Shown: positions 11,053-57,408 of the stretch, in pieces
How positions within the stretch are numbered: the stretch's first letter is position 1
Layout: each line of letters starts with the position of its first letter
From: an uncultured Planctomycetales bacterium
GTDB taxonomy: Bacteria; Omnitrophota; Gorgyraeia; Aquiviventales; Aquiviventaceae
NCBI GenBank assembly: GCA_964373175.1
Contig: CAYJTP010000004.1
Location: 6,651-70,650 of the forward strand
Direction of reading: 5' to 3'
DNA: 64,000 bases
Position numbers and translations under genes: made by a program
The notes under the pieces: generated by a model
Databases searched by the model: none
What the model was told of the DNA's origin: nothing
The model's input: the letters and a program-made list of their open reading frames with translations, nothing else

Positions 11053-11331
11053 TCAGACCAGAGACTTGAGACATGAGACTTGAGATCTGTGACTTCCTTG
11101 TCTCTTGTCTCTTGTCTCTTGTCTCTTGAACGCTCCGCCCCCCACGAACTGAACGATCTCCACCTGATCTCCCGCCTTGAGCACCGTTGAGGGCAGTTGG
11201 TCCCGTTTGAGGATCGTGAGATTCACCTCAACCACCACCCGTTCCGGCCGAATGGCGAGCTGCTCCAAGAGCTGGGCCGCCGTGAGCCCCTCGGCCACGT
11301 CTCGCCGCTGTCCATTCACCACTAACTCCAT
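11053..11331 (-). CDS. thiS: ThiS/MoaD-family sulfur-carrier protein. The 66-aa core ends …VQFVGGG and is followed by a 26-aa tail encoded by the heptamer repeat.
   Basis: MELVVNGQRRDVAEGLTAAQLLEQLAIRPERVVVEVNLTILKRDQLPSTVLKAGDQVEIVQFVGGG matches the ThiS pattern. No stop follows GGG. The frame continues as AFKRQETRDKRQG… through gagacaagagacaag repeats to a TGA at 11053. Confidence 0.6.
   Translation of the reverse strand: MELVVNGQRRDVAEGLTAAQLLEQLAIRPERVVVEVNLTILKRDQLPSTVLKAGDQVEIVQFVGGGAFKRQETRDKRQGSHRSQVSCLKSLV
11062..11135. repeat. Heptamer-repeat element (GACAGAR/GAGACAAG family), copy a
   Basis: cttgagacatgagacttgagatctgtgacttccttgtctcttgtctcttgtctcttgtctcttg, located between the thiS core and the topA start. 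Confidence 0.8.
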
Positions 11332-11438: not shown

Positions 11439-12560
11439 TCAACACGCCTTGAGAAATTGTTTACCCGGCAATTGCTTGACGAGCCGTTTCAGCTCGAGCT
11501 GTAACAACGCCGACGCGCACGTCGAGACTGCCAAGCCGGTCTTTGCCACGATCGCATCAAGGTTGCACGGCTCATCCGAGTGAAGCTGATTGAGCAACAT
11601 GCGCTCGTCTGGAGCCAACGCGCTGAGGGCTCGATCTGCCTCAGCCGAGAGCGGTTGAGCTGGACGACCCGCGCAAACCACGCGTGCTTCGAGGTGAAGT
11701 TCTTCGAGGATGTCCTCAACGCAGGTCACCAGCTTGGCACCTTGTTTTAGCAACTGGTGCGTGCCTTGCGAGGTCACTGAGTCAACCTTGCCGGGCACTG
11801 CAAAGACTTCACGACCCTGCTCCAGCGCGCAGTCTGCGGTGATGAGCGCTCCGCTGCGGTTGGACGCTTCGACGATGACGACGCCAAGTGACAGGCCGCT
11901 CACCAACCGGTTTCGCCGTGGGAAATTCTGGGCGAGCGGCGCCATCTGCATCGGATACTCGGACAGCACAGCCCCGTGGGCCGCGATCTGCTCAGCCAGT
12001 TTCTCATGTTCTGGGGGGTAGATTGTCGAGAGCCCGTTTCCTAAGACCGCCAACGTCCGGCCATTCGCTTTGAGCGCGCCTCGGTGTGCAGCTCCATCGA
12101 TGCCCCTCGCAAGGCCGGAGACAACCGTCGCGCCTCGAAGTGCCAGGTCATACGCCAGCCGCTCAGCCACCTGCTGCCCATAGAGGGAGGCGCGCCGGGA
12201 GCCGACCATGGCGATCGCCGTGCGATCCGCCTCGGTCAGGTGGCCTTTCACATAGAGCACAAGTGGGGGATCGTGAATCTGCCTGAGCAACTCAGGAAAC
12301 TCAGCATCCAGTTGCGTCACGATGGTACATCGGGCTTGGTTGACCAAGCGAAGCTCTTCCTGAAGACCCTTCGTCTCGCGCAAGCCGGTCACCAGGCGCC
12401 TCGCCAAGACCGGTCCGATCCCCTCCACCTGCTTGAACTGTTCCTCCGATGCGGCAAACAGTTCACGCAACGTCCCGAATGCCTCGAGGAGCCGCTTGAC
12501 CCGCAGCGTCCCGATATCCGGGACCAGATTCAACAGGATCAATCGCTCGCGATCATCCAT
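11439..12560 (-). CDS. dprA: DNA processing protein DprA (Smf)
   Basis: Rossmann-like DprA core …IAMVGSRRASLYGQQVAERLAYDLALRGATVVSGLARGIDGAAHRGAL… plus a C-terminal winged-helix domain. Confidence 0.9.
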   Translation of the reverse strand: MDDRERLILLNLVPDIGTLRVKRLLEAFGTLRELFAASEEQFKQVEGIGPVLARRLVTGLRETKGLQEELRLVNQARCTIVTQLDAEFPELLRQIHDPPLVLYVKGHLTEADRTAIAMVGSRRASLYGQQVAERLAYDLALRGATVVSGLARGIDGAAHRGALKANGRTLAVLGNGLSTIYPPEHEKLAEQIAAHGAVLSEYPMQMAPLAQNFPRRNRLVSGLSLGVVIVEASNRSGALITADCALEQGREVFAVPGKVDSVTSQGTHQLLKQGAKLVTCVEDILEELHLEARVVCAGRPAQPLSAEADRALSALAPDERMLLNQLHSDEPCNLDAIVAKTGLAVSTCASALLQLELKRLVKQLPGKQFLKAC

Positions 12561-12589
12561 GGATTAGACTCAAGCTTTCTTCCAAGCCG

Positions 12590-12800
12590 CCTCGAATTGT
12601 GGATCGTCGATTGCGCCCGTCCCGGCTCTGAGACTCAACGGCGGGCCGGGGAATTGCGGATTGACCGACGAACCACTCCGCAATCCCTGCCCGCCATGAG
12701 AAGCGAGGGGCAGGCGGGGAAAATCCCTGCCCGCCACGCGGAACATGGGGCAGGCGGGCAAAATCCACAATCCCTGAGGTGTTGAAGCTAGCTCTAAGCA
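12590..12800. repeat. Array of GC-rich palindromic REP-like hairpin units (CCCTGCCCGCC-N10-GGGGCAGGCGGG family). A related unit lies at ~1080-1160.
   Basis: aatccctgcccgccatgagaagcgaggggcaggcggggaa / aatccctgcccgccacgcggaacatggggcaggcgggcaa plus a gaattgcgga…tccgcaatcc hairpin. The same cccgcctgcccc…gggcgggcaggg hairpin and the shared motif ccggctctgRgaYt..acggcgggccgggg occur at 1080-1160. Confidence 0.75.
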
Positions 12801-12884
12801 TACCACACGACGAAAACAGCAGACAAGGCACCCCGGGCAAATGGCAAGACAAGGACCGGCGTGGTCGCAAGATCCTCGAGGGCG

Positions 12885-13334
12885 CTATCGCCCGCCGCGT
12901 CGGATCGGACTGGCCGTGAGAAGCCGGGCCTTATCGTTAAAACACATGACAAATCGGTCGAACACCCCGGCCCGCCCCAGTAGATTGAACCCCACGCGGA
13001 GGGCATCCGAGAACCCTGCGGGCACGGAACATTCAACGCCCGCAAACCGCACCCGGACGCGGTGGAGGTAGATGGGGATGACGCTTCCGTTGCCCAGCGC
13101 CATGTAGCGCCGCTTGGCGTGCAAGAGCTTGAGGCCTAAGAGTTGTGCGACGTCAGAATGGAAGATAGTCCACGACGCCCCTGAGTCGACATACGCTTGG
13201 AGATAGAGCCAGCGATCCCCGGTCCAGACCTGGAGGTAGACAATGGGTGCAAAGTGCCCGGTTGAATCTTTCAGATAGGGGAATTCCATCCGCCGAAGCG
13301 GGGTCCTGCGAGGCGAGGCCGAACGCGCACCCAT
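12885..13334 (-). CDS. Retropepsin-like (clan AA) aspartic protease domain protein
   Basis: …LQAYVDSGASWTIFHSDVAQLLGL… carries the D-S/T-G-A active-site motif of bacterial retropepsin-like proteases. The true start may be the internal Met (MEFPYLKD…). Confidence 0.6.
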   Translation of the reverse strand: MGARSASPRRTPLRRMEFPYLKDSTGHFAPIVYLQVWTGDRWLYLQAYVDSGASWTIFHSDVAQLLGLKLLHAKRRYMALGNGSVIPIYLHRVRVRFAGVECSVPAGFSDALRVGFNLLGRAGVFDRFVMCFNDKARLLTASPIRRGGR

Positions 13335-13461
13335 CCCCCCACCTATCTATCAAGGCGGCTATGAGGAGAGAGAAACCGCCGTGCGAAGCCGCCTTGATCA
13401 ACCTGTGTTGTTCCGTCGAACGAGTCCGCTGACAGCGGACTCGAGATAGATGGGGGGACCA

Positions 13462-14181
13462 TTACAGGGCGATCGCGGATTCCTCAGGCAAAGGGATGTA
13501 ATAGATCCCAACCTCTCGGTCGGGGGGAACGTGTTGGCGAATTGCCTGATACGCCTTCAAATGCGTGGTTCCGACCGCGACGACGCGATCATTCAGGACC
13601 GCCACGTACTTGCCCCCGTAGCGGGTGGTGAGTTCGTGGCTGTGGGCGAGGAAGTAGTGCCAGCTTGTCGACATCCACGGACCGATCTGGCTCCAGATCC
13701 GCTCGACGACTTCCTCAACCGTGGCGCGACTCGTGTCAAGCGTCAGGTCAGCCTTCGCATAGGCCGAGGCGCGCTGCGCCAATAATTGCTGAATCCGCTG
13801 AAGCGGGGAGGCGGCCTTCGCAAGTAATGGACGGCTCAAGAGGGTTGGACGCGCGCGCTGCACAATGACCCGCGGGCTTGCCGTCAGACAAATCACCGGC
13901 CCCACGGCCCGCAAGAGGCGTTGGTTCTCTGGATTGACAAACGCTCCCCCACCTGTCGCGATGACCTGTTGATGGCCCTTGGCGATCCGACGAATCGCCC
14001 GTTTCTCCAGCCGCCGAAAAACCGCCTCGCCGTGTTCGGCAAAAATCTTGGCGACGGACTCCTTGGCACTGGCGACAATCACGCTATCCACATCGACGAA
14101 CCGCCAGCCCAAGCGCTTCGCCAGCCGCTTGCCGACGGCGGTCTTCCCCGTGCCCATGAAGCCGGTCAGGGTAATGTTCAT
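13462..14181 (-). CDS. aroK: Shikimate kinase with an in-frame C-terminal ~70-aa DUF5678-like domain
   Basis: N-terminus MNITLTGFMGTGKTAVGKRLAKRLGWRFVDVD (P-loop) through …VEEVVERIWSQI is typical AroK (~170 aa). The frame then continues without a stop into MSTSWHYFLAHSHELTTRYGGKYVAVLNDRVVAVGTTHLKAYQAIRQ…IYYIPLPEE. That stretch resembles small standalone DUF5678-type proteins, assigned from memory. Confidence 0.8.
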   Translation of the reverse strand: MNITLTGFMGTGKTAVGKRLAKRLGWRFVDVDSVIVASAKESVAKIFAEHGEAVFRRLEKRAIRRIAKGHQQVIATGGGAFVNPENQRLLRAVGPVICLTASPRVIVQRARPTLLSRPLLAKAASPLQRIQQLLAQRASAYAKADLTLDTSRATVEEVVERIWSQIGPWMSTSWHYFLAHSHELTTRYGGKYVAVLNDRVVAVGTTHLKAYQAIRQHVPPDREVGIYYIPLPEESAIAL

Positions 14182-14184
14182 AGC

Positions 14185-14258
14185 TCAGAGGTCAGAAGAC
14201 AGAGGACAGAAGACAGAATACAGATGACAGGTCAGACCAGAGACAAGAGACATGAGAC
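14185..14258. repeat. Heptamer-repeat element, copy b
   Basis: gtcagaagacagaggacagaagacagaatacagatgacaggtcagaccagagacaagagacatgagaccagagat, between the aroK start and the upstream gene stop. Confidence 0.8.
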
Positions 14259-14264
14259 CAGAGA

Positions 14265-15542
14265 TTAAGGCGCATGTGTCGAGGTTGGTTGCTCCGGTGT
14301 CGCTGCCGCGAGGGCTTCCGGTGGTATGGTGATTTCGATTGGAAGGTTATGGTCGCTAAAGTCCACTGTGTTTTCGAATAAAAATTTCACGTTTTCATTT
14401 TTAGGAGGCGTACCAACTAGCTCCGCAAAGGGCCAACTCTGAATCGTTAGTCTCTTCAGAATTCCTTCTCCCTTTACATGGTCTCTCACAAGAAAATAGC
14501 TGTTTGAATCGATCCACTGCTCAGATATAAAATCAGTAACAACCAGGTTATCTTGGAATGTCGGTAGACTCTCTGGCGTATCGAGCAACCCTTGTAGTAT
14601 TTTCGCAACTCTTTGAAGACCACCGAATTTCTGCCTCACAAGGTAGCATTCCTTACCCTCCAATAAGACTTGTGCAATCTCCGCATTAGCAAATTCAGTT
14701 ATAGCGGTTTGTTTTCCCTCTGGCAACCTACCACTCGCCAAGGTTACCAAATCTTCTGGACGTTCACTAATGAATAGGTCAACTAAAGTGATCTTTCCTT
14801 CGCCCAACATATTCCAAAACTCTGCCACCCCTTTCGCGGTTTCCTCACCGGAAATTTTCTCCCAGCTTCCCAAAAAATTATGGAGCACAGCAGTCTCTGT
14901 GAAATAAATGTCTCTTTTCCTTCGCATCTCCTGTTCCACTACATTTATATCCAGTAATTGGAGGAGGTGTTGCTTTTGATCCGGCTTGAGGTTTAGGTTT
15001 TGTAGGACCTTTTGTCTCTCTTTTTGAAACAGCTCCTTAGCAAATTCACTCTCATGCCGAAGAACCTGATAGGATGCATGGTATCTCTTAGCATCAGCAC
15101 TACCAGCCCCTTCGCCTCTTGCTTCAAGATCAGTAAGGCCTTCGATTGATAAGGTGGTTTGGGCTACTGCCTTAATAGTCCGTATGGCTTTATTTACCCT
15201 CTCATATTTTGTGACGATCTCTTGAGGATCTGGAATCGGGCCGGGTTCTGAAACCTTGGTATCTTGCGTTGCCACAGGAGGCGTTTCAGATATCTTTGTC
15301 CCTGTCTCTGGAGGAGAGCTTGCCTCGATATGGGCGATGGATTCTTTCGCGTAAGGGATCGTTGTCCCACTGGAAACTTCAACTTCGACGGCGGAGTCCG
15401 TCATCTTCACAATTTTTCCCTCAATGACCTTGCCATCCTTGAAGTGGATTTTTTCAGCAAACGCCTCCTCTGACCAAAGAGCTGTGAGCATGACCACAAC
15501 CCACGCTCCCCACCATTTCCAGTCTCTTGTCTCTTGTCTCAT
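14265..15542 (-). CDS. Hypothetical secreted protein (N-terminal signal peptide). The gene has low GC (~45%) and is probably horizontally acquired.
   Basis: Signal-like MRQETRDWKWWGAWVVVMLTALWSEEAFA|EK, then a KIHFKDGKVIEGKIVKMTDSAVEVEV small beta-rich motif. No recognisable catalytic motif. Composition is markedly AT-richer than its neighbours (runs of aaa/gaa codons). Confidence 0.6.
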   Translation of the reverse strand: MRQETRDWKWWGAWVVVMLTALWSEEAFAEKIHFKDGKVIEGKIVKMTDSAVEVEVSSGTTIPYAKESIAHIEASSPPETGTKISETPPVATQDTKVSEPGPIPDPQEIVTKYERVNKAIRTIKAVAQTTLSIEGLTDLEARGEGAGSADAKRYHASYQVLRHESEFAKELFQKERQKVLQNLNLKPDQKQHLLQLLDINVVEQEMRRKRDIYFTETAVLHNFLGSWEKISGEETAKGVAEFWNMLGEGKITLVDLFISERPEDLVTLASGRLPEGKQTAITEFANAEIAQVLLEGKECYLVRQKFGGLQRVAKILQGLLDTPESLPTFQDNLVVTDFISEQWIDSNSYFLVRDHVKGEGILKRLTIQSWPFAELVGTPPKNENVKFLFENTVDFSDHNLPIEITIPPEALAAATPEQPTSTHAP

Positions 15543-15552
15543 GTCTCTCGTC
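15512..15552. repeat. Heptamer-repeat element, copy c
   Basis: cagtctcttgtctcttgtctcatgtctctcgtct. It also supplies the first codons (MRQETRD) of the secreted-protein ORF. Confidence 0.7.
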
Positions 15553-15698
15553 TAAAACTGCTCGAGTTGGCGCAGGTAGCCGTGATAGTTGCGCTTGAGT
15601 TCGCGCAAGGAATCACCGCCAAACTTCTGGAGGATTGCATTGGCCAGTTCGAAGGCGACCATCGCTTCGCCGATCACCCCGGCCGCGGGCATGGTATT
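15552..15698 (-). pseudogene. Duplicated, diverged 3' fragment of aroC (49 codons). It is the relic of the original aroC end displaced by the MntA/HepT cassette.
   Basis: Minus-strand translation gives [49 protein letters not shown]. The intact aroC C-terminus is …[46 protein letters not shown]. Nucleotide identity is ~80% over ~150 bp (15550-15700 against 16337-16487). Confidence 0.85.
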
Positions 15699-16042
15699 CA
15701 TCGCGAGGCGCCACCCAGCAGTTCTTTGGCGGCTTCTTCAAGGCCAGAGAGCTTGTGCTGAACAACATCCCACACGACCTCAACGTTGATGCCGAAATAT
15801 TCATGGATTAAGATGTCCCGTAATCCGGCGATCTTTCTCCACTCGATATGAGGCTTCCGGCTGCGGGCATCCTCCGGCAGACGCTTCACGGCTTCGCCAA
15901 TGACTTCGAGATTCCGGACCACGGCATCCAACGTTTTCGCATCGTTCGACAGGGCGGCGACGGACATACCGCCTGTGAATTCCCGAATCTTTCGAATCGC
16001 CTCAAGGATGTCTTCGAGATAGACCTGAGGGTCCCGTGGCAT
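15698..16042 (-). CDS. hepT: HepT-like toxin (DUF86 / RX4HXY nuclease) of a HepT/MntA type II TA pair
   Basis: …[23 protein letters not shown]… contains the R-x4-H-x-Y motif. ~110 aa, immediately downstream of the cognate nucleotidyltransferase gene. Confidence 0.85.
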
Positions 16043-16322
16043 AAACCGTTTCCTTTAAAATGCCCTCCCGCAACCTCGGCTTAATCGTATCCGCCAACAC
16101 GAGATCGACGGAACATCGAAACAGGTCTTCCAGAAAAAATTTCAGGTTCATGTAGGCATCGAAGCTGTTGTGTTCAAGCTCGACGAGGAAGTCCAGGTCG
16201 CTGCCCGCACCTCCTTCATCGCGGGCGATGGAGCCAAAGAGGCCGAGTCGCCGAACGCCAAGTTGTCGGAGAGCCTGTTGGTTGTCTCGTAGACGTTTCA
16301 AGACCTCTTCTCGAGTCTTCAT
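16002..16322 (-). CDS. mntA: MntA-like minimal nucleotidyltransferase antitoxin
   Basis: GS-x9-DxD nucleotidyltransferase motif (LGLFGSIARDEGGAGSDLDFLVEL). It overlaps the hepT start, as is usual for this TA family. Confidence 0.85.
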   Translation of the reverse strand: MKTREEVLKRLRDNQQALRQLGVRRLGLFGSIARDEGGAGSDLDFLVELEHNSFDAYMNLKFFLEDLFRCSVDLVLADTIKPRLREGILKETVYATGPSGLSRRHP

Positions 16323-16338
16323 CGCATCATCTCCTCAC

Positions 16339-17493
16339 CTAAAACTGCTGGATTTGACGAACATAGCCCTGAAGATTCCGCTTGAGTTCGCGCAAGGAAT
16401 CGCCCCCGAACTTCTCGAGAATCGCCTTCGCCAGCTCAAACGCAATCATCGCTTCCCCGATCACGCCGGCAGCGGGCACAGTACAGACATCCGAGCGCTC
16501 TACTGTGGCGACGACGGGGCGTTTCGTATTGATCTCAACCGAGCGAAGGGGTTTGCGCAGCGTTGAGAGCGGTTTCAAAAATCCCCGGACGATGACCGGC
16601 TGGCCCGTCGTCATGCCACCTTCAAACCCCCCTGCACGATTTGACGAGCGTGTGAACCCTGTTCGCTTGCTGTAGAAAATTTCATCCTGCACTTTCGAAC
16701 CTGGCAGCGAAGCGGCGAGCACCCCATCACCCACTTCAGCAGCTTTCACCGCGTGGATCGCGAGGATCGCGCGTGCCAAGATGGCATCCAACCGCCGGTC
16801 ATATTGGACATAACTCCCCAGTCCAGGCGGAACCCCCTCCGCGATCACTTCAAAAATTCCACCGAGGGTATCGCCCCGCTTCATGCAGGCGTCGATTTCG
16901 CGCATCATGTTCTTTGTCGCCTGTGGATCAAGACATCGGACAGGCGAGGCGTCCGCTTTTTTTCGAAGCTGCGCAATCGACAGCTTCGGGATGCGCGTGG
17001 CACGCGTTGCGCCGATGGCCACGATGTGGCTCGCGAGCTCAATCCCCAGCTCACCCAGGAGTTGCTTGCAGATGGCTCCAACAGCCACCCGTGCTGCGGT
17101 CTCCCGGGCGCTGGCCCGCTCCAGGACATTGCGGATGTCCCGATGGTCGTATTTCATCGCGCCGGTCAGATCGGCATGCCCGGGTCTGGGCTGCGTGACC
17201 ACTAGCAAACGGTCGATGGAAAAGTCTTTGTTGGCAATCTGCAGCGACACCGGGCTTCCCAACGTCACGCCCTTGCGAAGCCCAGAGAGGATCTCGACCC
17301 GATCGGTCTCAAACTGCATACGGGGACCGCGGCCATACCCAAACTGCCGGCGCTTCATCTCGACGTCAATCGCCTCTTGCCGGATCCTCACTCCTGCCGG
17401 CAGACCATCGAGGATGGCCACCAGACATTTGCCGTGTGATTCACCCGCTGTCAAGAAGCGTAACATCAGGCTCTCCACCCGACCAAGGACCAC
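16339..17493 (-). CDS. aroC: Chorismate synthase
   Basis: MLRFLTAGESHGKCLVAILDGLPAG… and conserved AroC blocks (…GRSSNRAGGFEGGMTTGQPV…). 384 aa. Confidence 0.95.
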   Translation of the reverse strand: MVLGRVESLMLRFLTAGESHGKCLVAILDGLPAGVRIRQEAIDVEMKRRQFGYGRGPRMQFETDRVEILSGLRKGVTLGSPVSLQIANKDFSIDRLLVVTQPRPGHADLTGAMKYDHRDIRNVLERASARETAARVAVGAICKQLLGELGIELASHIVAIGATRATRIPKLSIAQLRKKADASPVRCLDPQATKNMMREIDACMKRGDTLGGIFEVIAEGVPPGLGSYVQYDRRLDAILARAILAIHAVKAAEVGDGVLAASLPGSKVQDEIFYSKRTGFTRSSNRAGGFEGGMTTGQPVIVRGFLKPLSTLRKPLRSVEINTKRPVVATVERSDVCTVPAAGVIGEAMIAFELAKAILEKFGGDSLRELKRNLQGYVRQIQQF

Positions 17494-18290
17494 AAGATTT
17501 GAATCGTCTCCTCAATGCCAGTTCTCTGGATCAGCAGAGATCCGCTAAAGAGGGACAGGACGAGCGCCAACGAGAGAAAGGGCCCATACGGAATCACGTG
17601 TGACCGTTTCCACAACAGCACCCCCACACCCGGGATCAGGGCGAGGACTGGAGCGATGAAAAACGTGAAGGTCACCAGTTTCCATCCCAGGATTGACCCC
17701 GCCATCGCCAGCAATTTCACGTCCCCCCCACCCATGGCCTCTTTGCGAAACAAGACGCTTCCAAGCGCCCCGGTTGTGTACAACAACCCTCCCCCCACCG
17801 CCGCGCCAAGGAGAGCACGCTTCAGGGAGACCAAGGCGTGGTCGGTCCCATGAAGGTGGGGGACGAGCAGGCTGAGCAACAGTCCGATGATGAGTCCCCC
17901 GACACTGATTTCATCAGGAATGATCTGGTGCTCCAGATCAATGAAGCTCGCCACCAGGAGCGCCCACACGAACGCCAGATAGATCACCCCAACAACCCCC
18001 ACCCCAAAATGATGGAGCACGGCAACCGTCGACAAGCCACTCAAGGCTTCCACGACGGGGTAGCGCCAGTGGATCGTCGTGTGGCAATGCCGACACCGGG
18101 CGCCAAGCGCCAGGTAACTGAGGATCGGGATGTTGTCATACCACGCGATGGGGCGCTGGCACTGCGGACAGTGCGACCGCGGGTGGATGATCGACTCCTC
18201 GCGAGGCAACCGATAAATGCAGACATTAAGGAAACTCCCCACCATTGCTCCGAGGACGAACCATATCATCCACATCAGTCCATAGTCCAT
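17466..18290 (-). CDS. pilD: Prepilin peptidase / type IV leader peptidase (peptidase A24)
   Basis: N-terminal Cys-rich region (CPQCQRPIAWYDNIPILSYLALGARCRHC) plus multi-TM body with the catalytic Asp region (…GGGDVKLLAMAG…). It overlaps aroC by 28 nt. Confidence 0.85.
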   Translation of the reverse strand: MDYGLMWMIWFVLGAMVGSFLNVCIYRLPREESIIHPRSHCPQCQRPIAWYDNIPILSYLALGARCRHCHTTIHWRYPVVEALSGLSTVAVLHHFGVGVVGVIYLAFVWALLVASFIDLEHQIIPDEISVGGLIIGLLLSLLVPHLHGTDHALVSLKRALLGAAVGGGLLYTTGALGSVLFRKEAMGGGDVKLLAMAGSILGWKLVTFTFFIAPVLALIPGVGVLLWKRSHVIPYGPFLSLALVLSLFSGSLLIQRTGIEETIQILWSLVGWRA

Positions 18291-18356
18291 GGTCCATAGT
18301 CCATAGTCAACAACGAGGTTGCCGGTGGACCATCGACGATTGACTATGGACTATCG
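18279..18356. repeat. Tandem TCCATAGTC/TCCATGGTC octamer repeats (x4) with a downstream inverted copy (gactatggactatcgac).
   Basis: gtccatagtccatggtccatagtccatagtc…gactatggactatcgactg. It spans the aroE-pilD spacer and supplies the pilD initiation codons (ATGGACTATGGACTG = MDYGL). Confidence 0.7.
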
Positions 18357-19259
18357 ACTGCGTGTACGAAGCGCCTGCTCTACCGCCCGGCGCATCACGT
18401 CAATCGGCGGCGGCCGATGCCACCACAGCCTGAATGACTCGGCTCCTTGGTATACTAACATCGGAAGTCCATCCACCGCAAGCGCCCCGCGCCGTCTGGC
18501 CTCCAGCACCAGCTTCGTCGTTGGGGCGCGATAGACCAGGTCGACCACCACCAGCCCCTTGCGAATGGTGCGCGGGGGAACCGGAAGCGGATCGCCGAGG
18601 CGAAGCCCCAGACTCGTCGCATTCACCAGCAGGTCGACCTCCTGAAGACGCCGTCCAATCGCCCGGCGCTCGAAGGGAATCGTCGTCAGCTCGAGGCGCT
18701 CGTGTGTCCCCTGCCGTGATGCGGCACGTCGTAACCACCGGATGAACCTGTTCGTATGCGCCGGTGTGCGGTTCGCCACCGTGATGCGCTCAGGAACCGC
18801 TTGCGTCAGCACCCACCCCACCGCTCGGGCCGCTCCTCCCGTCCCTAAGAGCAGAATGCGTTTCCCCCGACTATGCCAGTGGAGCGCTTCACGGAGCACC
18901 TGACGAAATCCGGCGACATCGGTGTTATACCCGATGAAGCGGCTGCCCTTGCGAACCAGGGTATTCACAGCCCCAACGACCGAGGCCGACTCATCAAGGT
19001 CTGTCCGTGGATTCAACGACCGCATGATCCGCTCTTTGTGCGGAACGGTGATATTCAACCCATCAATGCCGGCCGCTGCTAAACCCTGAAACACCGGGCC
19101 AAGGACTCGGGGCGGGACTTCGAACGGCGCATAGATGGCATCCAGCCCAAGGGCGTCAAAGGCCGCCGTATGCATGAGGGGAGACAGGCTGTGACTGATC
19201 GGGTAGCCGACCACCCCGAAGACACGCGTCATTGGAACGTGGCACGGGGCATGAGACAA
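18351..19259 (-). CDS. aroE: Shikimate dehydrogenase
   Basis: …VFGVVGYPISHSLSPLMHTAAFDALGLDAIYAPFEV… and an NADP-binding GTGGAARAV motif. The likely true start is the internal Met (MTRVFGVV, ~19232). Confidence 0.85.
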   Translation of the reverse strand: MSHAPCHVPMTRVFGVVGYPISHSLSPLMHTAAFDALGLDAIYAPFEVPPRVLGPVFQGLAAAGIDGLNITVPHKERIMRSLNPRTDLDESASVVGAVNTLVRKGSRFIGYNTDVAGFRQVLREALHWHSRGKRILLLGTGGAARAVGWVLTQAVPERITVANRTPAHTNRFIRWLRRAASRQGTHERLELTTIPFERRAIGRRLQEVDLLVNATSLGLRLGDPLPVPPRTIRKGLVVVDLVYRAPTTKLVLEARRRGALAVDGLPMLVYQGAESFRLWWHRPPPIDVMRRAVEQALRTRSR

Positions 19260-21252: not shown

Positions 21253-22367
<1,115 letters not shown>

Positions 22368-25304: not shown

Positions 25305-25395
25305 GTGATGATCCCTTCACGCTTGCCCGCCCCCCCGGCCCGCCGCGAGCGACAGCCGGGGCGGGCAGCGATAGCGAAAGGCGGGCCGGGGAGGC
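25305..25395. mobile_element. Partial, inverted copy of the TIR element core (the ccccccggcccgccg…gacagccggggcgggc… segment), immediately 5' of the ilvB start
   Basis: gcccgcccccccggcccgccgcgagcgacagccggggcgggcagcgatagcgaaaggcgggccgggg is approximately the reverse complement of the interior of the copies at 28479-28706 and 34447-34600. Confidence 0.5.
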
Positions 25396-27613: not shown

Positions 27614-28478
27614 CGGTTCGCACCAATTCTACACCAGCGCCGTGTGCGGTCACCACACCAATCTCCGTCAGGGGTAGGCGACCAATCGCCGCCGGCACGC
27701 GAGGGGCGATCCGCTGCGGGACCGTGAACAGCAATTCAAAATCTTCCCCGTCCATGAGCGCATGCCACGCCGTCTCGGCGGCTTGAGCCACGGGGATCGC
27801 GTCTTCGTGGATCTGGAACGTCACACGGCTAGCCCGCGCCAGCTGCCAGAGATCAGACGCCAGTCCATCCGAGAGATCAATCATGGCATGCACAGGAAGA
27901 TGCGCCACGAGCCACTGGGCCTCGCGCAGCCGTGGCGTGAAGGTCGCATGCCGGTGGTGCGCTAAGGCTCCGCCCAATCGCCCGGTCACGAACACCCGCT
28001 CACCGAGCTTGGCGCCACTGCGCAGGACAAGATGCTTCGGCCGGACGGTTCCGAGAATCGCGACGTCGATCACCACACACGGGGCGCGGACCGTATCGCC
28101 GCCGACGATCGCCACGCCAAATCGTCTGGCGCAGCGCACCAAGCCGTGGTAGAGCCGATCCACAAACGACACGGCAACCTGGCGCGGAAGTCCGAGAGAC
28201 ACAACCGCGTATTTCGGCACACCTCCCATCGCCGCGATGTCGCTGATATTGCATGCCAAGGCCTTCCATCCGATCCAGTGAGGGGCCAGATGTCCTCGCG
28301 TGAAGTGCACCCCCTCAATCAGCATGTCACTGGCAAAGAGCAGTGACTTGGTTCGCGTCGCGCGGAGAACCGCCGTGTCATCCCCGATTCCCACCAGCAC
28401 CGACGGGACAACGGGAATCCGTCGCCTGAGGCGGTCAATCAAGCCCACTTCCCCCAGCGTGGCAATCGTCCGCGTCAT
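27567..28478 (-). CDS. thiL: Thiamine-monophosphate kinase. The true start is ATG at 28476-28478, and the listed ORF extension runs into repeat DNA.
   Basis: MTRTIATLGEVGLIDRL…AIR-synthase-related fold motifs (…GDDTAVL…, …GGDTVRAP…). The upstream 61 codons of the listed ORF are encoded by the TIR element. Confidence 0.85.
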   Translation of the reverse strand: MTRTIATLGEVGLIDRLRRRIPVVPSVLVGIGDDTAVLRATRTKSLLFASDMLIEGVHFTRGHLAPHWIGWKALACNISDIAAMGGVPKYAVVSLGLPRQVAVSFVDRLYHGLVRCARRFGVAIVGGDTVRAPCVVIDVAILGTVRPKHLVLRSGAKLGERVFVTGRLGGALAHHRHATFTPRLREAQWLVAHLPVHAMIDLSDGLASDLWQLARASRVTFQIHEDAIPVAQAAETAWHALMDGEDFELLFTVPQRIAPRVPAAIGRLPLTEIGVVTAHGAGVELVRTDGRITSLIPKGFKHF

Positions 28479-28706
28479 CCCCCCACCTGTCTTCCCCGGC
28501 CCGCCGATAGCCCTCGCCGCCCGCCCCGGCTGTCGCCGGCGTCGGGCCGGGGGGGCGGGCGGCCCGGAGGGCCAACCGCGTTTGGGTTCATGGGTTGATT
28601 CACCTTCGGTGAACCCCCACACCACCCCGCCATCGGCGGGGTGGCGTCGGGGGAGCGCCATTCGGGGCTTCCTGGTGTGGGGGTGAATAGACAGGTGGGG
28701 GGATCA
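28479..28706. mobile_element. MITE-like element copy 1 (~228 bp). Terminal inverted repeats GTCATCCCCCCACCTG … CAGGTGGGGGGATCAT, with a nested CCCCCACACC…GGTGTGGGGG palindrome and a CCACCCCGCCA..GGCGGGGTGG REP.
   Basis: It is directly adjacent to the thiL ATG (…cgcgtcat|ccccccacctgtcttcc…gaatagacaggtggggggatcat). The interior shares ~70 bp with copy 2 at 34447-34600 (ccggcccgccgatagccctcgccgYccgccccggctgtcgccggcgtcgggccgggggggcgggc). Confidence 0.65.
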
Positions 28707-31326: not shown

Positions 31327-32391
31327 TCAGGGGCGTGGGGCGTGGGGCGTGGGGCGTGGGGCATCGCTCTGACCGTGCCCCTCGTCTCTCGCCCCCTGCC
31401 CCAACAAATCAAGCCATTCTTCGCGTAAGAGGGTCCCGACCAATCGGGGGCTCACCATCTGCTCAAGGGACCCCCATAACTCAATGAGCCGGAGGCCCGT
31501 CTCCACGCAGCGCTCGCTGTCCACCTGCTTCGCTTGCCGATGGATCGTCGTGGCGGCGTCCCGATGGCTCACCAGCGACTCATCCGCCACGGCCGCAACC
31601 GCAAGGTCACGAAGCCACGCAATCGACCCCATGAGCCAGGAAGCCACTTCCTGACGGTCCATCGGGACCGCCCATCCCAGCCACGGAGCTGGCGAGGCTG
31701 CACCAAACTGCGCGACCATTCCCTCCAGCGCCTTCCACTGCGTCATCACCTCAAGTGCCCGCGAGAGGCTCCCTTGGGCCAGACGGCTGATGGCCTGCGC
31801 AATCTGTGGAGGACAGGCGTGCCTGGTGACCAGCGAGTCTTCGATGAGGGAAGCGGACAGCCGAGCAAACCGAATGACCTGGCATCGCGAGACAATCGTC
31901 GCAAGGCAGCGGGCGGGCTGATCGGTCAGGAGAACAAACCGCGCGTGGGCGGGCGGTTCTTCGAGCGACTTCAGGAGGATGTTCCCCGCTTCCTCGGTCA
32001 ACCGATCCGCCCCATCCACGATCACCACCTGACACGTCCCCATGAAGGGACGCAGCGCAATCCGGCCTAACACGCCCCGAACCTCATCGATCCGAATCAG
32101 CTCTGAGGCGCCATGCGGGAAAAGCCCGTGCACATCAGGATGGACCTGGCGGTCGATCCGCTGACAGCTGTCGCAGCGATCACAGGAGTCGCTGTCGCCG
32201 TGTTCGCAGTTGAGGGCTTTAGCTAATGTTCTCGCCACGAGGCGCTTGCCGACCCCATCCGGTCCCACAAAGAGATACGCAAGCGCCAGACGCTGGCGGC
32301 TCGCGTGGGTCTGCAAGATCCGAAGGGCAAGGGCTTGTCCATGAATCTCCGTCCACGCCATCCGACCGAGTCCTATCCTGAAGGCCGCCAC
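31327..32391 (-). CDS. holB: DNA polymerase III delta-prime subunit
   Basis: AAA+ fold with AYLFVGPDGVGKRLVARTLAKALNCEH and the Zn module CDRCDSCQ. The C-terminal tail (…DAPRPTPHAPRP) is encoded by GGGGCGTGGGGCGTGGGG repeats. Confidence 0.85.
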   Translation of the reverse strand: MAAFRIGLGRMAWTEIHGQALALRILQTHASRQRLALAYLFVGPDGVGKRLVARTLAKALNCEHGDSDSCDRCDSCQRIDRQVHPDVHGLFPHGASELIRIDEVRGVLGRIALRPFMGTCQVVIVDGADRLTEEAGNILLKSLEEPPAHARFVLLTDQPARCLATIVSRCQVIRFARLSASLIEDSLVTRHACPPQIAQAISRLAQGSLSRALEVMTQWKALEGMVAQFGAASPAPWLGWAVPMDRQEVASWLMGSIAWLRDLAVAAVADESLVSHRDAATTIHRQAKQVDSERCVETGLRLIELWGSLEQMVSPRLVGTLLREEWLDLLGQGARDEGHGQSDAPRPTPHAPRP

Positions 32392-33058: not shown

Positions 33059-34446
33059 AACGTCCCGCCGGCGGTATCCGTCAAGAGATATCCCTCCTGC
33101 TGGAGCTGCCGGCGGATTGCATCAGCCCGCTTGAAGTCCTTGGCCTTCCGAGCCCCGTCCCGTTCGGCAACCAGCGCTTGCAACCGTTGCTGGATGTCCG
33201 GACGCTCTTCTGACATGCCGTGGAGGAATAATCCAAGGGCCACCCCCCATTCCAGCAAGACATCATGGATCCCTCGTGCCATGAAGCGCTGTTTCGAGTC
33301 GCCAGACTCCAGGATCCGATGTCCCAGGTTCACCAGATCAAACAGCACGGACAAGGCCTCTGGCGTGTTGAGATCGTTAGCCATCGCTGTGTCGAATTGC
33401 GCTCGAGCCTTGAGGAGCTCTGGTGGAGCCGCTGCGCCACTCACAGCGTCGGGTTTGAGCTGGTCATCGTGTTGGAAAAACCGAGAAAATTCCTGCCAAT
33501 TGGTCTTGGCTTCAACCATGCGCTCCGATGAGTAGTCAATCGGCGACCGATAATGCGTTTTGAGGAAGAAGATTTTCAGGTAGTCGGGGTGAGGATAGTC
33601 CACCAGGACGTGGTCAACGGTCAGAAAGTTGCCCAACGACTTCGACATCTTTTCGCCGTTGACGGTCAGCAGCCCATGATGGACCCAATAACGGGCGAAG
33701 GGTTTGCCAGCCGCCTGGGCCTGGGCGAGTTCATTCTCATGATGCGGAAATACGAGATCGACTCCGCCGCCGTGGATGTCAAACGCATCGCCCAGATACT
33801 TCGTGCTCATCGCTGAACACTCGATATGCCAGCCAGGTCGTCCCCTCCCCCAGGGGCTGTTCCAAGACGGCTCGCCGGGTTTCGCAGCTTTCCACAGCGC
33901 GAAGTCTAACGGATCACGCTTGTGCTCACCCGGTTCCACGCGCGTCCCGGCTTGAAGCTCATCCAAGCTGCGGTTGGAGAGCTGGCCATAACGCGCAAAC
34001 TTCCGCACGGCAAAGTAGACATCGCCACCCGCTTCGTAGGCCGCGCCTTGCATGAGGAGCTTTGAGATCAGGTCGGTCATCTCTGGCACGACATGCTCCG
34101 TCGCGCGCGGCTCGTGCGTGGGAGGGTTGAGGCCAAGCCGATCCAACGTCTCATGATACCGTTTCAAATATCGTTCGGCGACGGCGGTCGGCGATTCACC
34201 GGTCTCCTGGGCTTTCTGGATGATTTTATCGTCGACGTCCGTCACGTTGCGGACACACTGCACCTGGAATCCTTTGTATTCGAGGTAGCGACGCAGGATC
34301 TCAAAGATGTAGGCACTCCGGACGTGGCCGATGTGCGGCTCATCGTACACCGTGGGGCCACAGACATACATCTTCACTGTAGGAGGATCGAGCGGCGTCA
34401 AGTCTTGGACGGTCCGAGTGAGCGTATTGTAAAGGCGCAGGGTCAT
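33040..34446 (-). CDS. cysS: Cysteinyl-tRNA synthetase. The true start is ATG at 34444-34446, and the upstream 112 codons of the listed ORF belong to the TIR element.
   Basis: [16 protein letters not shown]…[18 protein letters not shown] (HIGH) … KMSKSLGN. Confidence 0.9.
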
Positions 34447-34600
34447 CCCCCCACCTGCCTTCCCCCCCGGCCCGCCGATAGCCCTCGCCGTCCGCCCCGG
34501 CTGTCGCCGGCGTCGGGCCGGGGGGGCGGGCCGATCAAGCGTTGCGTCTCCTGTTGATTCACCTTCGGTGAATAGGCAGGTGGGGGGATCACGGGCTGTG
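34447..34600. mobile_element. MITE-like element copy 2 (~154 bp), same TIRs as copy 1, directly abutting the cysS ATG
   Basis: ggtcat|ccccccacctgccttcccccccggcccgccgatagccctcgcc…gattcaccttcggtgaataggcaggtggggggatcac. Confidence 0.65.
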
Positions 34601-39274: not shown

Positions 39275-39372
39275 ACTTCGCGATCAGAAGACAGAGGTCA
39301 GAAGTCAGAGGACAGGCGCGGCCGAGCTTATTGGGTACCTGTCTTCTGTCGTCTGTCTTCTGTCTTCTGTCC
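39275..39372. repeat. Heptamer-repeat element, copy f: inverted pair or hairpin between mlaD and radA
   Basis: gatcagaagacagaggtcagaagtcagaggacagg…ctgtcttctgtcgtctgtcttctgtcttctgtcc. Confidence 0.8.
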
Positions 39373-51812: not shown

Positions 51813-53381
51813 TTACGTTGTCCTAACCCTGTGTTTGACGAGGGGTTGGAACCAGAGCCATCCAAAGGCCACCACAAGACACAGCCACGCAAACCAGTCT
51901 CCCCACCTGGCATACAGGGTGTGAGACTGACTCGGCTGCACGTCGCAGACCGAAAACCCCTCAACAAAGAGCTCCTTGCCCTTCGAGTTCTGGACGCTGG
52001 CCTGCCAACGGCCGGTTTCATCAATGCAGCCGGACCAGCCGGTGTTGGCCGCACGGATCATCGGCACGCGCAGTTCCACGGCTCTGAACGCCGAGGCTTG
52101 TGCATGCTGGTACGCGGCCGCCGTATCGCCAAACCACGCGTCGTTGGTGATCGTAACCAACATCTGAGCTCCCCGGTTGACAAATTGTCGAGCCAACCCT
52201 GGGAAGATGTCTTCGAAACAGATCAACACACTAAAGCGGGGCGGGGGGCGGGGGGCGGGGGGCGGGGAAACCAACTCATGCCCGTGCCCCACGTCTCTCG
52301 CCCCATGCCCCTCCACGTCAAATACGGTGTACTCATGGCCTGGCACAAAGTTGCCGATCGGCGGCAAGACTCCCCGCAGCCACGGAAAGACTGACTCCAG
52401 AGGGATGAATTCCCCGAAAGGCACCAGATGAAGCTTGTCGTACCGTGTCAGGATGGCTCCCTCGGCATCCAGCAACACGGCGCTATTCGTCAGATACCAC
52501 GTGCCGTCCCGCAAGACACCCATCGGCGCACCGACCAACAAGGGCGTCTGGATCGATTGGGCCAATTGCTTGATCTGCATCGTCATCTGAGCATCTAAAC
52601 CAACATAGCCGGGTACCGAGGTTTCCGGCCACACGATAAGCTGCGGGTGGTGGCGAGCCGCTTCGTGCGTGAGCCGTTCATAGCGCTCAACAATGGACTG
52701 CTGAAACGCCTCGTCCCATTTTTCCTCTTGGGGGATGTTGCCTTGGACGACGGCGATCTTGAGCGGTGTGGTGGGAACAAACTGCTGAAGACGCGCTTTG
52801 CCATACGCCCAGCTTGCAACCACACAACCAAGTGCCAGGGTCATCATGGGAATGACGCGGTGCGCCTCACGCTGGCTCAGATAGCTCGCAATCGCCACAT
52901 TCACCATGACCAGCAGAAACGACACGCCCCAGACACCAGTTACGTCAGCGACTTGGATGGCCGTCAATGCTGGTGTCTGCGAATAGCCCAGGAGGTTCCA
53001 TCCAAAACCCGAGAGGAGATGACTACGCAGGTACTCAAGCGCAACCCACGCAGAGGGAATAAGAAGGTGATGGGTGATGGGTGATGGGTGATGGGTGAAC
53101 TTATGAGCGAGCCAGCCAAATACGCCGAAAAAGAGCGCGAGGTATGCGCAGAGCAGGGTCAATCCCACAAGCGTCACATGCACAAGCCACCAAATGGTGC
53201 CAAGGAAAAACACAAGCCCGACGAGATACGACCAGCCAAATGCTTGCCGCGGGCTCAGCGTCTGCAGACTGATCAGCCATGGGACCAGCGCCACCCACGC
53301 GCACCACGGCTGGTTCCAGTTCGGGAAAGAGAGAGCCAGCAGGACGGCGCTACTCAGCGCCAGGAGGAGCGATTGCAACAC
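51813..53381 (-). CDS. lnt: Apolipoprotein N-acyltransferase carrying an in-frame ~23-aa GC-rich element insertion in the CN-hydrolase domain
   Basis: N-terminal multi-TM region plus CN hydrolase domain (…IAVVQGNIPQEEKW…, …VLICFEDIFP…). Insertion …VFDVEGHGARDVGHGHELVSPPPAPRPPPRFSVLICFE… The start is read as GTG at 53379-53381. Confidence 0.85.
   Translation of the reverse strand: MLQSLLLALSSAVLLALSFPNWNQPWCAWVALVPWLISLQTLSPRQAFGWSYLVGLVFFLGTIWWLVHVTLVGLTLLCAYLALFFGVFGWLAHKFTHHPSPITHHLLIPSAWVALEYLRSHLLSGFGWNLLGYSQTPALTAIQVADVTGVWGVSFLLVMVNVAIASYLSQREAHRVIPMMTLALGCVVASWAYGKARLQQFVPTTPLKIAVVQGNIPQEEKWDEAFQQSIVERYERLTHEAARHHPQLIVWPETSVPGYVGLDAQMTMQIKQLAQSIQTPLLVGAPMGVLRDGTWYLTNSAVLLDAEGAILTRYDKLHLVPFGEFIPLESVFPWLRGVLPPIGNFVPGHEYTVFDVEGHGARDVGHGHELVSPPPAPRPPPRFSVLICFEDIFPGLARQFVNRGAQMLVTITNDAWFGDTAAAYQHAQASAFRAVELRVPMIRAANTGWSGCIDETGRWQASVQNSKGKELFVEGFSVCDVQPSQSHTLYARWGDWFAWLCLVVAFGWLWFQPLVKHRVRTT
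52237..52316. repeat. GC-rich element (GGCGGGGGGCGGGGGGCGGGGGGCGGGG … CCCGTGCCCCACGTCTCTCGCCCCATGCCCCTCC) inserted in frame in lnt
   Basis: Read directly. It is translated as EGHGARDVGHGHELVSPPPAPRPPP. Same GGGGCRNGGGGCAC family as the lysS element. Confidence 0.7.
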
Positions 53382-53927: not shown

Positions 53928-53978
53928 CGAGTCTCACCTCCGCAATGAGTGTATCAGAAGTGATGAACTCTGTCAACA

Positions 53979-54062
53979 CGCGCACCACGGCTGGTTCCAG
54001 TTTGGAAACGAGAAAACGAGGAGGACGGCGTTACTCAGCGCCAAGAGAGGCGGTCGTCTCAA
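53979..54062 (-). pseudogene. Diverged duplicate of the lnt 5' end (first ~27 codons), on the far side of the relBE cassette
   Basis: gcgcaccacggctggttccagtttggaaacgagaaaacgaggaggacggcgttactcagcgccaagagaggcgg is ~85% identical to 53299-53378 (gcgcaccacggctggttccagttcgggaaagagagagccagcaggacggcgctactcagcgccaggaggagcg). It translates to RRPPLLALSNAVLLVFSFPNWNQPWCAC*. The lnt N-terminus is MLQSLLLALSSAVLLALSFPNWNQPWCAW…. Confidence 0.8.
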
Positions 54063-57100: not shown

Positions 57101-57349
57101 GCGTTTCAGTCGCTCATCATGGCCAAGCTCATACCACTCGGGGCTGCTCGGATCAATAAACTGGAAGGACTCAAGAGATTTGCGCAGGCGGGCTCGCAGC
57201 TCCTCGGTTTTGGCGCGTAACTGGTCGTCGGAGAGCTTCTGGACATCTGGCTCAAGGCGATTAATGCGCTCGACCACGGGTGCGAGCCGCTTGAGCTCCC
57301 GTGCGCTCTGCGTCCCGAGCAGCTTTTGGAGAATCCACGTGACCATCAT
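54173..57349 (-). CDS. secA: Preprotein translocase subunit SecA
   Basis: DEAD-like motor motifs (…[20 protein letters not shown]…), preprotein cross-linking domain, and C-terminal zinc-binding [14 protein letters not shown]. 1058 aa. Confidence 0.95.
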
Positions 57350-57408
57350 CAGATGACAGACATCAGACCACAGACGTCAGACGACAGAAAACAGAGGACA
57401 GAACATGG
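57348..57408. repeat. Heptamer-repeat element, copy i
   Basis: catcagatgacagacatcagaccacagacgtcagacgacagaaaacagaggacagaac, between the prfB stop and the secA start. Confidence 0.75.

Follow-up and report, generated by a model that had tools for sequence, protein, structure and literature searches.

How does a small toxin-antitoxin cassette come to stand at the very end of a biosynthetic gene that is still complete, with a second copy of that gene's end on its far side? The question is raised by a 64-kb stretch of contig CAYJTP010000004.1 from an uncultured groundwater bacterium of the Omnitrophota (below, the window, by which the whole stretch is meant and to which all coordinates refer), where the chorismate synthase gene aroC is followed by the putative antitoxin and toxin genes mntA and hepT and then by a 49-codon repetition of its own end. 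All genes of the locus lie on the minus strand. On balance, the answer is probably that a unit of 787 bp, consisting of a foreign aroC end and mntA-hepT, entered the aroC end by homology-driven insertion-duplication and then spread by means of its aroC arms.

A duplicated gene end around mntA and hepT

The aroC gene occupies 16339-17493 and gives a full match to the Pfam chorismate synthase family (PF01264, Chorismate_synt; E = 3.5e-114), so it is intact despite the insert; gene callers start it at 17466, which yields a protein of 375 amino acids (aa), while the full open reading frame (ORF) encodes 384 aa. Its stop codon is followed by a spacer of 16 nucleotides (nt; 16323-16338), in which a GGAG ribosome-binding site can be read, then by mntA (16002-16322), which encodes a nucleotidyltransferase antitoxin of the MNT kind, and by hepT (15698-16042), which encodes a HEPN ribonuclease toxin and overlaps mntA. 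The hepT stop is in turn overlapped (ATGA) by the ATG of a 49-codon ORF with its own stop, located at 15552-15701, that repeats the end of aroC. We refer to this ORF as copy B, and to the final ~48 codons of the intact gene with the stop codon and a few further bases (16334-16483; repeat family D1) as copy A. A first-pass annotation of the window had described an intact aroC ending at 16339, with mntA, hepT and a second in-frame end downstream, and all of these were confirmed. It had also described the second copy of the last 49 codons as ~80% identical to the first, which pairwise comparison bore out (79-80% over ~150 nt), and had given the cassette between the repeats a length of ~640 bp. 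The cassette is indeed bounded by the repeats, but it measured 625 bp from the mntA start to the hepT stop, and the mobile unit, which includes copy A (copy A, spacer, mntA, and hepT), measured 787 bp.

A repeat search aligned 15547-15696 with 16334-16483 over 150 nt without gaps, at 79% identity and a spacing of 787 nt; blastn within the window returned 153 nt at 79.7% identity (E = 1.5e-33). When AroC was searched against the window by tblastn, copy B was recovered (E = 2e-20), and copy B matched the NCBIfam chorismate synthase model at model positions 344-381. Over 47 in-register codons, the two copies were 79.4% identical in nucleotides and 80.9% identical in amino acids. Similarity begins no more than ~20 nt from the hepT stop, continues through the stop codon of the repeated end, and is gone within ~10 nt. 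The aroC-end repeat is the second strongest repeat in the window and the sole one that duplicates a gene end; the remaining repeats, as found by self-BLAST, are intergenic GC-rich hairpin elements and heptamer arrays. A third copy of the aroC end, as might have marked a second integration around the neighbouring ORF425, was sought in the window and not found.

The empty site and the origin of the two copies

Scans with AroC gave ~85 loci from uncultured groundwater Omnitrophota, whose AroC proteins were 71-86% identical to that of the window and in which the order leuA-aroE-pilD-aroC-aroK was kept throughout. In most of these relatives the gap from aroC to aroK was 0-130 nt. For 70 loci the sequence extended 150 nt or more beyond aroC, and in none of them was the locus's own aroC end repeated; the empty site that the first-pass annotation had suggested looking for in relatives, aroC and then aroK, was thus what they displayed. 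The nearest relatives by AroC (L083, L085, L102, and L175; 84-86% identity) all had empty sites. The AroC homologue search returned nothing above 86% identity except the window itself, and two public contigs encoding the exact HepT were 100% identical to the window and added no variation.

The spacer between aroC and aroK consists, in many relatives, of two heptamer arrays, inverted with respect to each other in the manner of a hairpin, the first of which starts right after the aroC stop (for example, TAGACATGAGACCTGAGAC...GTCTCCTGTCTCC...ATG in L086). In the window such an arm, composed of GAGACNN heptamers (15515-15551), begins directly after the stop of copy B, and the inverted arm (14186-14265) precedes aroK. 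Since the native spacer lies behind copy B, copy B is the original aroC end, still joined to the DNA that originally followed it. The last 37 nt of copy B were most similar to the aroC ends of L085 and L102 (0.84), followed by L175 (0.78), that is, to those of the nearest relatives of the host. The last 37 nt of copy A, in contrast, matched best the ends in L174 (0.86) and L103 (0.81), with a mean of 0.57 over all relatives. At the protein level, the tail RNLQGYVRQIQ[QH]F was found in three of the 120 best AroC homologues, namely those of the window (P0121), L174 (P0170), and L103 (P0188), and also in the partial aroC end of a contig described below, L163. Overall, the AroC proteins of L174 and L103 were only 78-79% identical to that of the window. 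Both of these genomes carry a MntA/HepT pair directly behind aroC, of a different type that is 41% identical to the window pair; the aroC-end duplication is absent from L174. The longest identical run between the window and L163, 38 nt, comprises the end of copy A, the stop codon, and GTGAG (permutation p = 0.019), in surroundings of 79% background identity. Copy B is thus the displaced native aroC end, and copy A is a foreign import that now completes aroC. The resemblance to tRNA-targeting islands, with aroC regenerated, that had been proposed from the first reading therefore holds, the upstream copy being foreign and the downstream copy native with its native spacer.

Copies A and B differ by 19 synonymous and 10 non-synonymous changes (proportion of synonymous differences, pS, 0.57; synonymous divergence, dS, ~1.1), with a ratio of non-synonymous to synonymous divergence (dN/dS) of 0.09. 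The functional orthologous aroC ends of L083 and L085 gave the same ratio. A dN/dS of 0.09 at a dS of ~1 indicates that the copies diverged as working aroC ends in different genomes; local duplication followed by decay was ruled out, because the copies differ as orthologues do. The same values bear on another possible origin, in which the cassette, on inserting, duplicated a long piece of the resident aroC end; the copies would have been identical at first and diverged later, possibly with allelic replacement of aroC by recombination. Insertions of addiction modules with target duplications of 30-500 bp are documented (Furuta, Abe and Kobayashi 2010, PMC2853133), and the geometry at aroC is like theirs. 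Against this origin stand the 79% identity and the dS of ~1.1, as well as the low dN/dS, which should be near 1 for a decayed relic. The tail of copy A, moreover, groups with a distant lineage that bears a toxin-antitoxin pair and is kept with the module in L163, and so it travels with the cassette. We consider a duplication of the resident end very improbable.

The same unit in other lineages

Further examples were reached via the closest homologues of HepT and MntA, on contigs that were short (0.7-1.2 kb). The module unit and the junction between hepT and copy B recur in at least three other metagenomic lineages. The first, L163, carries an aroC end (27/27 residues as in copy A), 16 nt, MntA (83% identity), HepT (88%), an aroC remnant of 50 codons, and a lipoprotein gene; both copies are visible, their offset is again 787 nt, and the spacer between aroC and mntA equals that of the window in length and is similar in sequence. 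The second, L170-L172, carries MntA, HepT (85%), an aroC remnant, a heptamer arm, and the start of aroK. The third, L176, carries MntA (85%), HepT, the same hepT/copy-B junction, and an aroC remnant, with REP-like non-coding DNA upstream of mntA. Two further features of the L176 contig were recorded: a perfect palindrome of ~130 nt at its start (1-130), which may be an assembly artefact, and, at 1040-1112, a hepT that reads through into the aroC remnant after a frame change near the C-terminus.

An alignment of the window with L163 and L171 needs no gap across the junction and copy B, beyond which the sequences diverge completely; downstream of the sister units lies a lipoprotein gene (L163) or a heptamer arm and then aroK (L170-L172). 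The copies B of the different lineages were 0.82-0.91 identical to various functional aroC ends, as compared with 0.73-0.82 among themselves, where dN/dS was 0.12-0.22. Over 722 nt, which take in mntA, hepT, and the 5' portion of copy B, the contigs L170 and L171 do not differ at all; of the final 32 nt, 4 are different. To judge from the two sequences, this change marks a recombination breakpoint within copy B, immediately 3' of a block coding for 10 residues.

These comparisons also bear on the idea of one ancient vertical insertion, after which selection would have kept the 49-codon fragment, be it as a working third gene, a regulatory segment, or a promoter; its translation would be coupled to that of hepT, or the expression of aroK would depend on it. 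Selection of this kind would account for both the undisturbed frame and the low dN/dS. In the window, L163, and L171, copy B has an open frame without indels and a start codon that overlaps the hepT stop, and related modules (described below) have a real third gene that is similarly coupled. It sits poorly with the premature stop in copy B of L170, the change of Arg to Trp in the invariant DSLRE motif in L163, and the several radical replacements in L171, the first two of which imply that the relic is not strongly protected. Nor do the copies B of the lineages group together, and each lineage has a different downstream context. A selected fragment of this age is therefore improbable in our view.

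The toxin-antitoxin pair and its sister cassettes

In type VII HepT/MntA systems the toxin is an RNase, and the antitoxin neutralizes it by AMPylation. The HepT of the window matched the Pfam HepT-like family (E = 7e-31; 106.9 bits against a cut-off of 23.5) and has the RX4HXY (Rx4-6H) motif in the form RDILIHEY; its MntA matched Pfam NTP_transf_2 (E = 5e-13; 49.7 bits against a cut-off of 21) as well as Polbeta, and has the GSX10DXD motif in the form GSIARDEGGAGSDLD. The pair thus shares with HEPN/MNT systems both domains, both motifs, and an antitoxin-first gene order with mntA upstream of and overlapping hepT. It differs from them in that the NCBIfam equivalog models MntA_antitoxin and HepT_toxin scored 40.3 and 48.7 bits, both below the cut-offs of 60. 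The evidence supports assignment of mntA-hepT to the HEPN/MNT (type VII) systems at the level of the family, not of the equivalog, with an activity that is predicted from sequence. The mntA stop codon, TAA in L163 and L171, is mutated to TCA in the window (16002-16026), which adds 8 codons and lengthens the product to 106 aa from 98 aa.

A search with HepT yielded 5316 homologues, the closest of them 83-88% identical. HepT proteins that are 81-84% identical to that of the window occur in modules of mntA, hepT, and a helix-turn-helix (HTH) gene. These modules are bracketed by a remnant of tRNA-Pro(CGG), its 5' two-thirds, upstream and by the intact tRNA downstream (L164, 4551-4592, 6435-6511, and 6657-6706; L167, 1-86 and 1222-1297). 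In L164 and L165, an extra fragment of the 3' part of the tRNA lies ~150 nt downstream of the intact tRNA-Pro. The HTH gene is coupled to hepT as the copy B ORF is, and the bases at the junction after hepT in L163, L171, and L176 (ATGAC...ATTGAGAAGGC) are those with which the HTH gene of the tRNA-Pro-linked modules starts; this hints that the aroC-linked module may have descended from a three-gene module of mntA, hepT, and the HTH gene.

Another MntA/HepT island lies between nuoC and nuoD (L177), where the flanks are a 44-nt fragment of the nuoD 5' end (100% identity) and fragments of the nuoC 3' end. The fragments are located at 4051-4116/7071-7114 and at 4752-4838/6465-6505/3431-3479, and two of them reach 100% identity over 41-44 nt. 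Paralogues of a small ORF, 40% identical, also flank this island. No integrase is encoded at the tRNA-Pro or nuoC/nuoD loci. The first-pass annotation had suggested a search for other gene-end duplications beside toxin-antitoxin pairs; the window holds none besides that of aroC, and brackets of gene fragments occur elsewhere at tRNA-Pro and nuoC/nuoD. The same signature at aroC, tRNA-Pro, and nuoC/nuoD speaks for a general homology-based process over one integrase specific to aroC.

Route of integration

The reconstructed order of events would be as follows. The donor would have been a genome with MntA/HepT directly behind aroC, like those of L174 and L103. The fragment would have integrated via homology in the aroC end, without an enzyme encoded by the element, either by circularising and recombining in a single Campbell-type crossover or through a one-sided, homology-facilitated event. 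The imported end would then have completed aroC, so that this gene of the shikimate pathway stayed intact, and the resident end would have been pushed downstream to become the 49-codon relic before the heptamer spacer and aroK. With aroC homology on both sides, the unit could later have moved between related genomes by homologous recombination, for example after DNA uptake. Precise loss by recombination between the repeats would also be possible; the toxin-antitoxin pair would penalize it.

No recombinase gene lies between the repeats, where only mntA and hepT are found and the 787 bp leave no room for one. A repeat search found no terminal inverted repeats around 15698-16338, the only inverted arms being those of the heptamer spacer around ORF425. 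A transposon, insertion sequence, or miniature inverted-repeat transposable element was rejected, as the terminal inverted repeats that, with a short target-site duplication, define such elements were not found there. The genes flanking the module are housekeeping genes. Taken together, the lack of a recombinase and of terminal inverted repeats, the three unrelated targets, the host-like tails of copy B, and the apparent breakpoint in L170/L171 argue for integration by homology, and we lean towards it over site-specific recombination. The first-pass annotation had left the choice between the two; the part of its claim that concerns an integration restoring aroC is supported, and on the choice itself the evidence tilts towards homology.

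Site-specific recombination could have acted on a minimal integrative cassette, akin to a cis-mobilisable element or to an island that has lost its integrase, and moved in trans by a tyrosine or serine recombinase at an attachment site in the aroC 3' end; the aroC end that the cassette carries would repair the target. The register, the junction, and the offset of 787 nt are identical between lineages; the perfect run of 38 nt between the window and L163 could be the core of the attachment site; and at tRNA-Pro, a gene of the kind that integrases classically target, the sister cassettes are enclosed by partial repeats of the tRNA. However, a recombinase gene was found neither in nor adjoining any locus examined, and aroC, tRNA-Pro, and nuoC/nuoD would call for several different site specificities. 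The conserved coding block that copies A and B have in common is not the same in every genome (GATTCC in the window, GACAGC in L163), and the breakpoint in L170/L171 falls elsewhere in the repeat. Such a cassette is possible, but we think it rather unlikely.

Several observations weigh against the homology-driven insertion-duplication that we favour. A stretch of 23 nt that copies A and B share without a difference is not significant alone (permutation p = 0.08); considered as the core of the crossover, this block was no more than suggestive and was not adopted. In L176, aroC is absent within the 427 nt upstream of mntA. The 5' part of copy B resembles aroC in the window and not in L163, L171, or L176, which the proposed events explain incompletely. 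The hosts of L163, L171, and L176 could not be placed on a tree from such short contigs, so that a single old vertical event is possible, and the junction and register common to all lineages fit a single origin or a site-specific mechanism equally well. A near-identical strain with an empty site was not found, which leaves the insertion undated. Finally, sliding-window identity along the body of aroC against ten relatives, all at most 76% identical in nucleotides, revealed no clear mosaic.

A broader proposal is correspondingly more tentative: the aroC end with MntA/HepT may be a recombinase-free, homology-armed selfish cassette, which brings a functional substitute for the end of a gene in an essential pathway and could enter any related genome, once its DNA was taken up, through the homologous recombination of the host. 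It would be harmless to its target and held in place by addiction, and the same strategy may be in use at tRNA-Pro and nuoC/nuoD in this phylum. We offer this as a conjecture with less than even prospects.

Surroundings of the locus

The gene downstream of the spacer, aroK (13462-14181), encodes a shikimate kinase fused to DUF5678 (Pfam SKI and DUF5678); the C-terminal fusion of DUF5678 to AroK is kept in nearly all relatives of the clade. The other neighbouring genes are pilD, aroE, leuA, an aspartic protease-like ORF, and dprA. Between the two spacer arms lies ORF425 (14265-15542), an orphan gene for a predicted secreted protein, with a low GC content (44-46%, as compared with ~60% in the flanks). 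It had no Pfam match and, among 1.84 billion representatives, no homologue below E = 1e-10 except itself; a weak match to a Leptospira-type N-terminal domain was recorded, and ORF425 was absent from all relatives. A role for ORF425 as part of the element was rejected: it lies beyond copy B, in the native spacer, differs in GC content, and is absent from the sister loci. ORF425 is a separate insertion within the loop of the heptamer hairpin spacer.

The left arm of that spacer was detected by Tandem Repeats Finder (TRF) at 15522-15553 with a period of 7, and forms an inverted repeat with 14234-14265. Tandem heptamer arrays (period 7, ~4-5 copies) build intergenic spacers across the window, often as inverted pairs predicted to fold into long hairpins; they were located at 11061-11128, 14186-14264, 15522-15553, 18277-18359, 21323-21377, 31330-31362, 39284-39371, and 57347-57402, among others. 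The design of the aroC-aroK spacer is common to the relatives, the heptamer differing per genome and genes being inserted between the arms. To our knowledge, no function has been described for such arrays. The gap between aroC and aroK is also a hot spot for insertion, with the second type of MntA/HepT in L002, L103, and L174, a VapBC-like pair in L006, and small secreted proteins in several other relatives.

GC-rich, REP-like hairpin repeats (CCCCGGCCCGCC...GGCGGGCCGGGG) occupy intergenic positions at 28474-28613, 34442-34572, 25325-25394, 12614-12761, and 1076-1125. Elements like them lie upstream of mntA in L176 and split the tRNA-Pro remnant of L167 and L168. One more direct repeat, 71 nt long and 87% identical, lies at 53296-53366 and 53977-54047. 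A scan of 14100-16700 for promoters and terminators found none on the minus strand, an Rfam search of 12000-19000 gave zero matches, and a tRNA search of the window found none.

Significance and comparison with known systems

Chromosomal toxin-antitoxin pairs are highly mobile, and the vehicle is known for few of them; the aroC locus and its parallels offer a concrete and testable route, in which a piece of a conserved neighbouring gene would act both as homology arm and as repair patch. A duplicated gene end beside a small cassette can be the scar of a horizontal transfer rather than a local duplication, and the annotation of metagenome-assembled genomes is affected, since gene callers call the 49-codon relic as a gene. 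The principle is not new, as both the regeneration of gene ends and the insertion of addiction modules with long repeats have been documented. If the proposal of homology-armed cassettes is true, however, they would be a general means, so far unrecognised, by which toxin-antitoxin pairs move in uncultured bacteria.

Some integrative islands and prophages restore the 3' end of the gene into which they insert; examples are the tRNA-targeting islands and, at icd in E. coli, e14 and phage 21. They share with the aroC locus direct repeats of the target 3' end, a copy borne by the element that completes the gene, and a host end left at the far side; at aroC, too, the insert lies between repeats of the target end, and the gene has been made whole. 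The differences are that no integrase is present at aroC, no recombinase lying beside the would-be attachment site, that the repeat is ~150 nt long at 79% identity, and that the cargo is a toxin-antitoxin pair only.

Restriction-modification gene complexes provide the second comparison, having been reported to insert with long target duplications and without a mobility gene (Furuta, Abe and Kobayashi 2010, PMC2853133, where Nobusato et al. 2000 is cited for such insertion). These insertions are found mostly in naturally competent species and have repeats of 30-500 bp (PMC2853133). The aroC locus shares with them an addiction module, the lack of a mobility gene, and a repeat that is longer than 30 bp (here ~150 nt) and aligns once with the empty-site genome. 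In the restriction-modification cases both repeats are near-identical resident copies, whereas here they are 79% identical, with tails that ally them to different lineages; one copy is xenologous (dS ~1), and the cargo is type VII-like.

A third likeness is to Campbell-type insertion-duplication and homology-facilitated illegitimate recombination during natural transformation, for which PMC3240628 and PMC3784515 are examples from the literature. The known cases are laboratory events with engineered or selected markers. In these, as in the events proposed here, a single homology anchors the foreign DNA, and the anchor gene may be partly duplicated; the difference is that the insertion at aroC is natural, recurrent, and fixed in environmental genomes.

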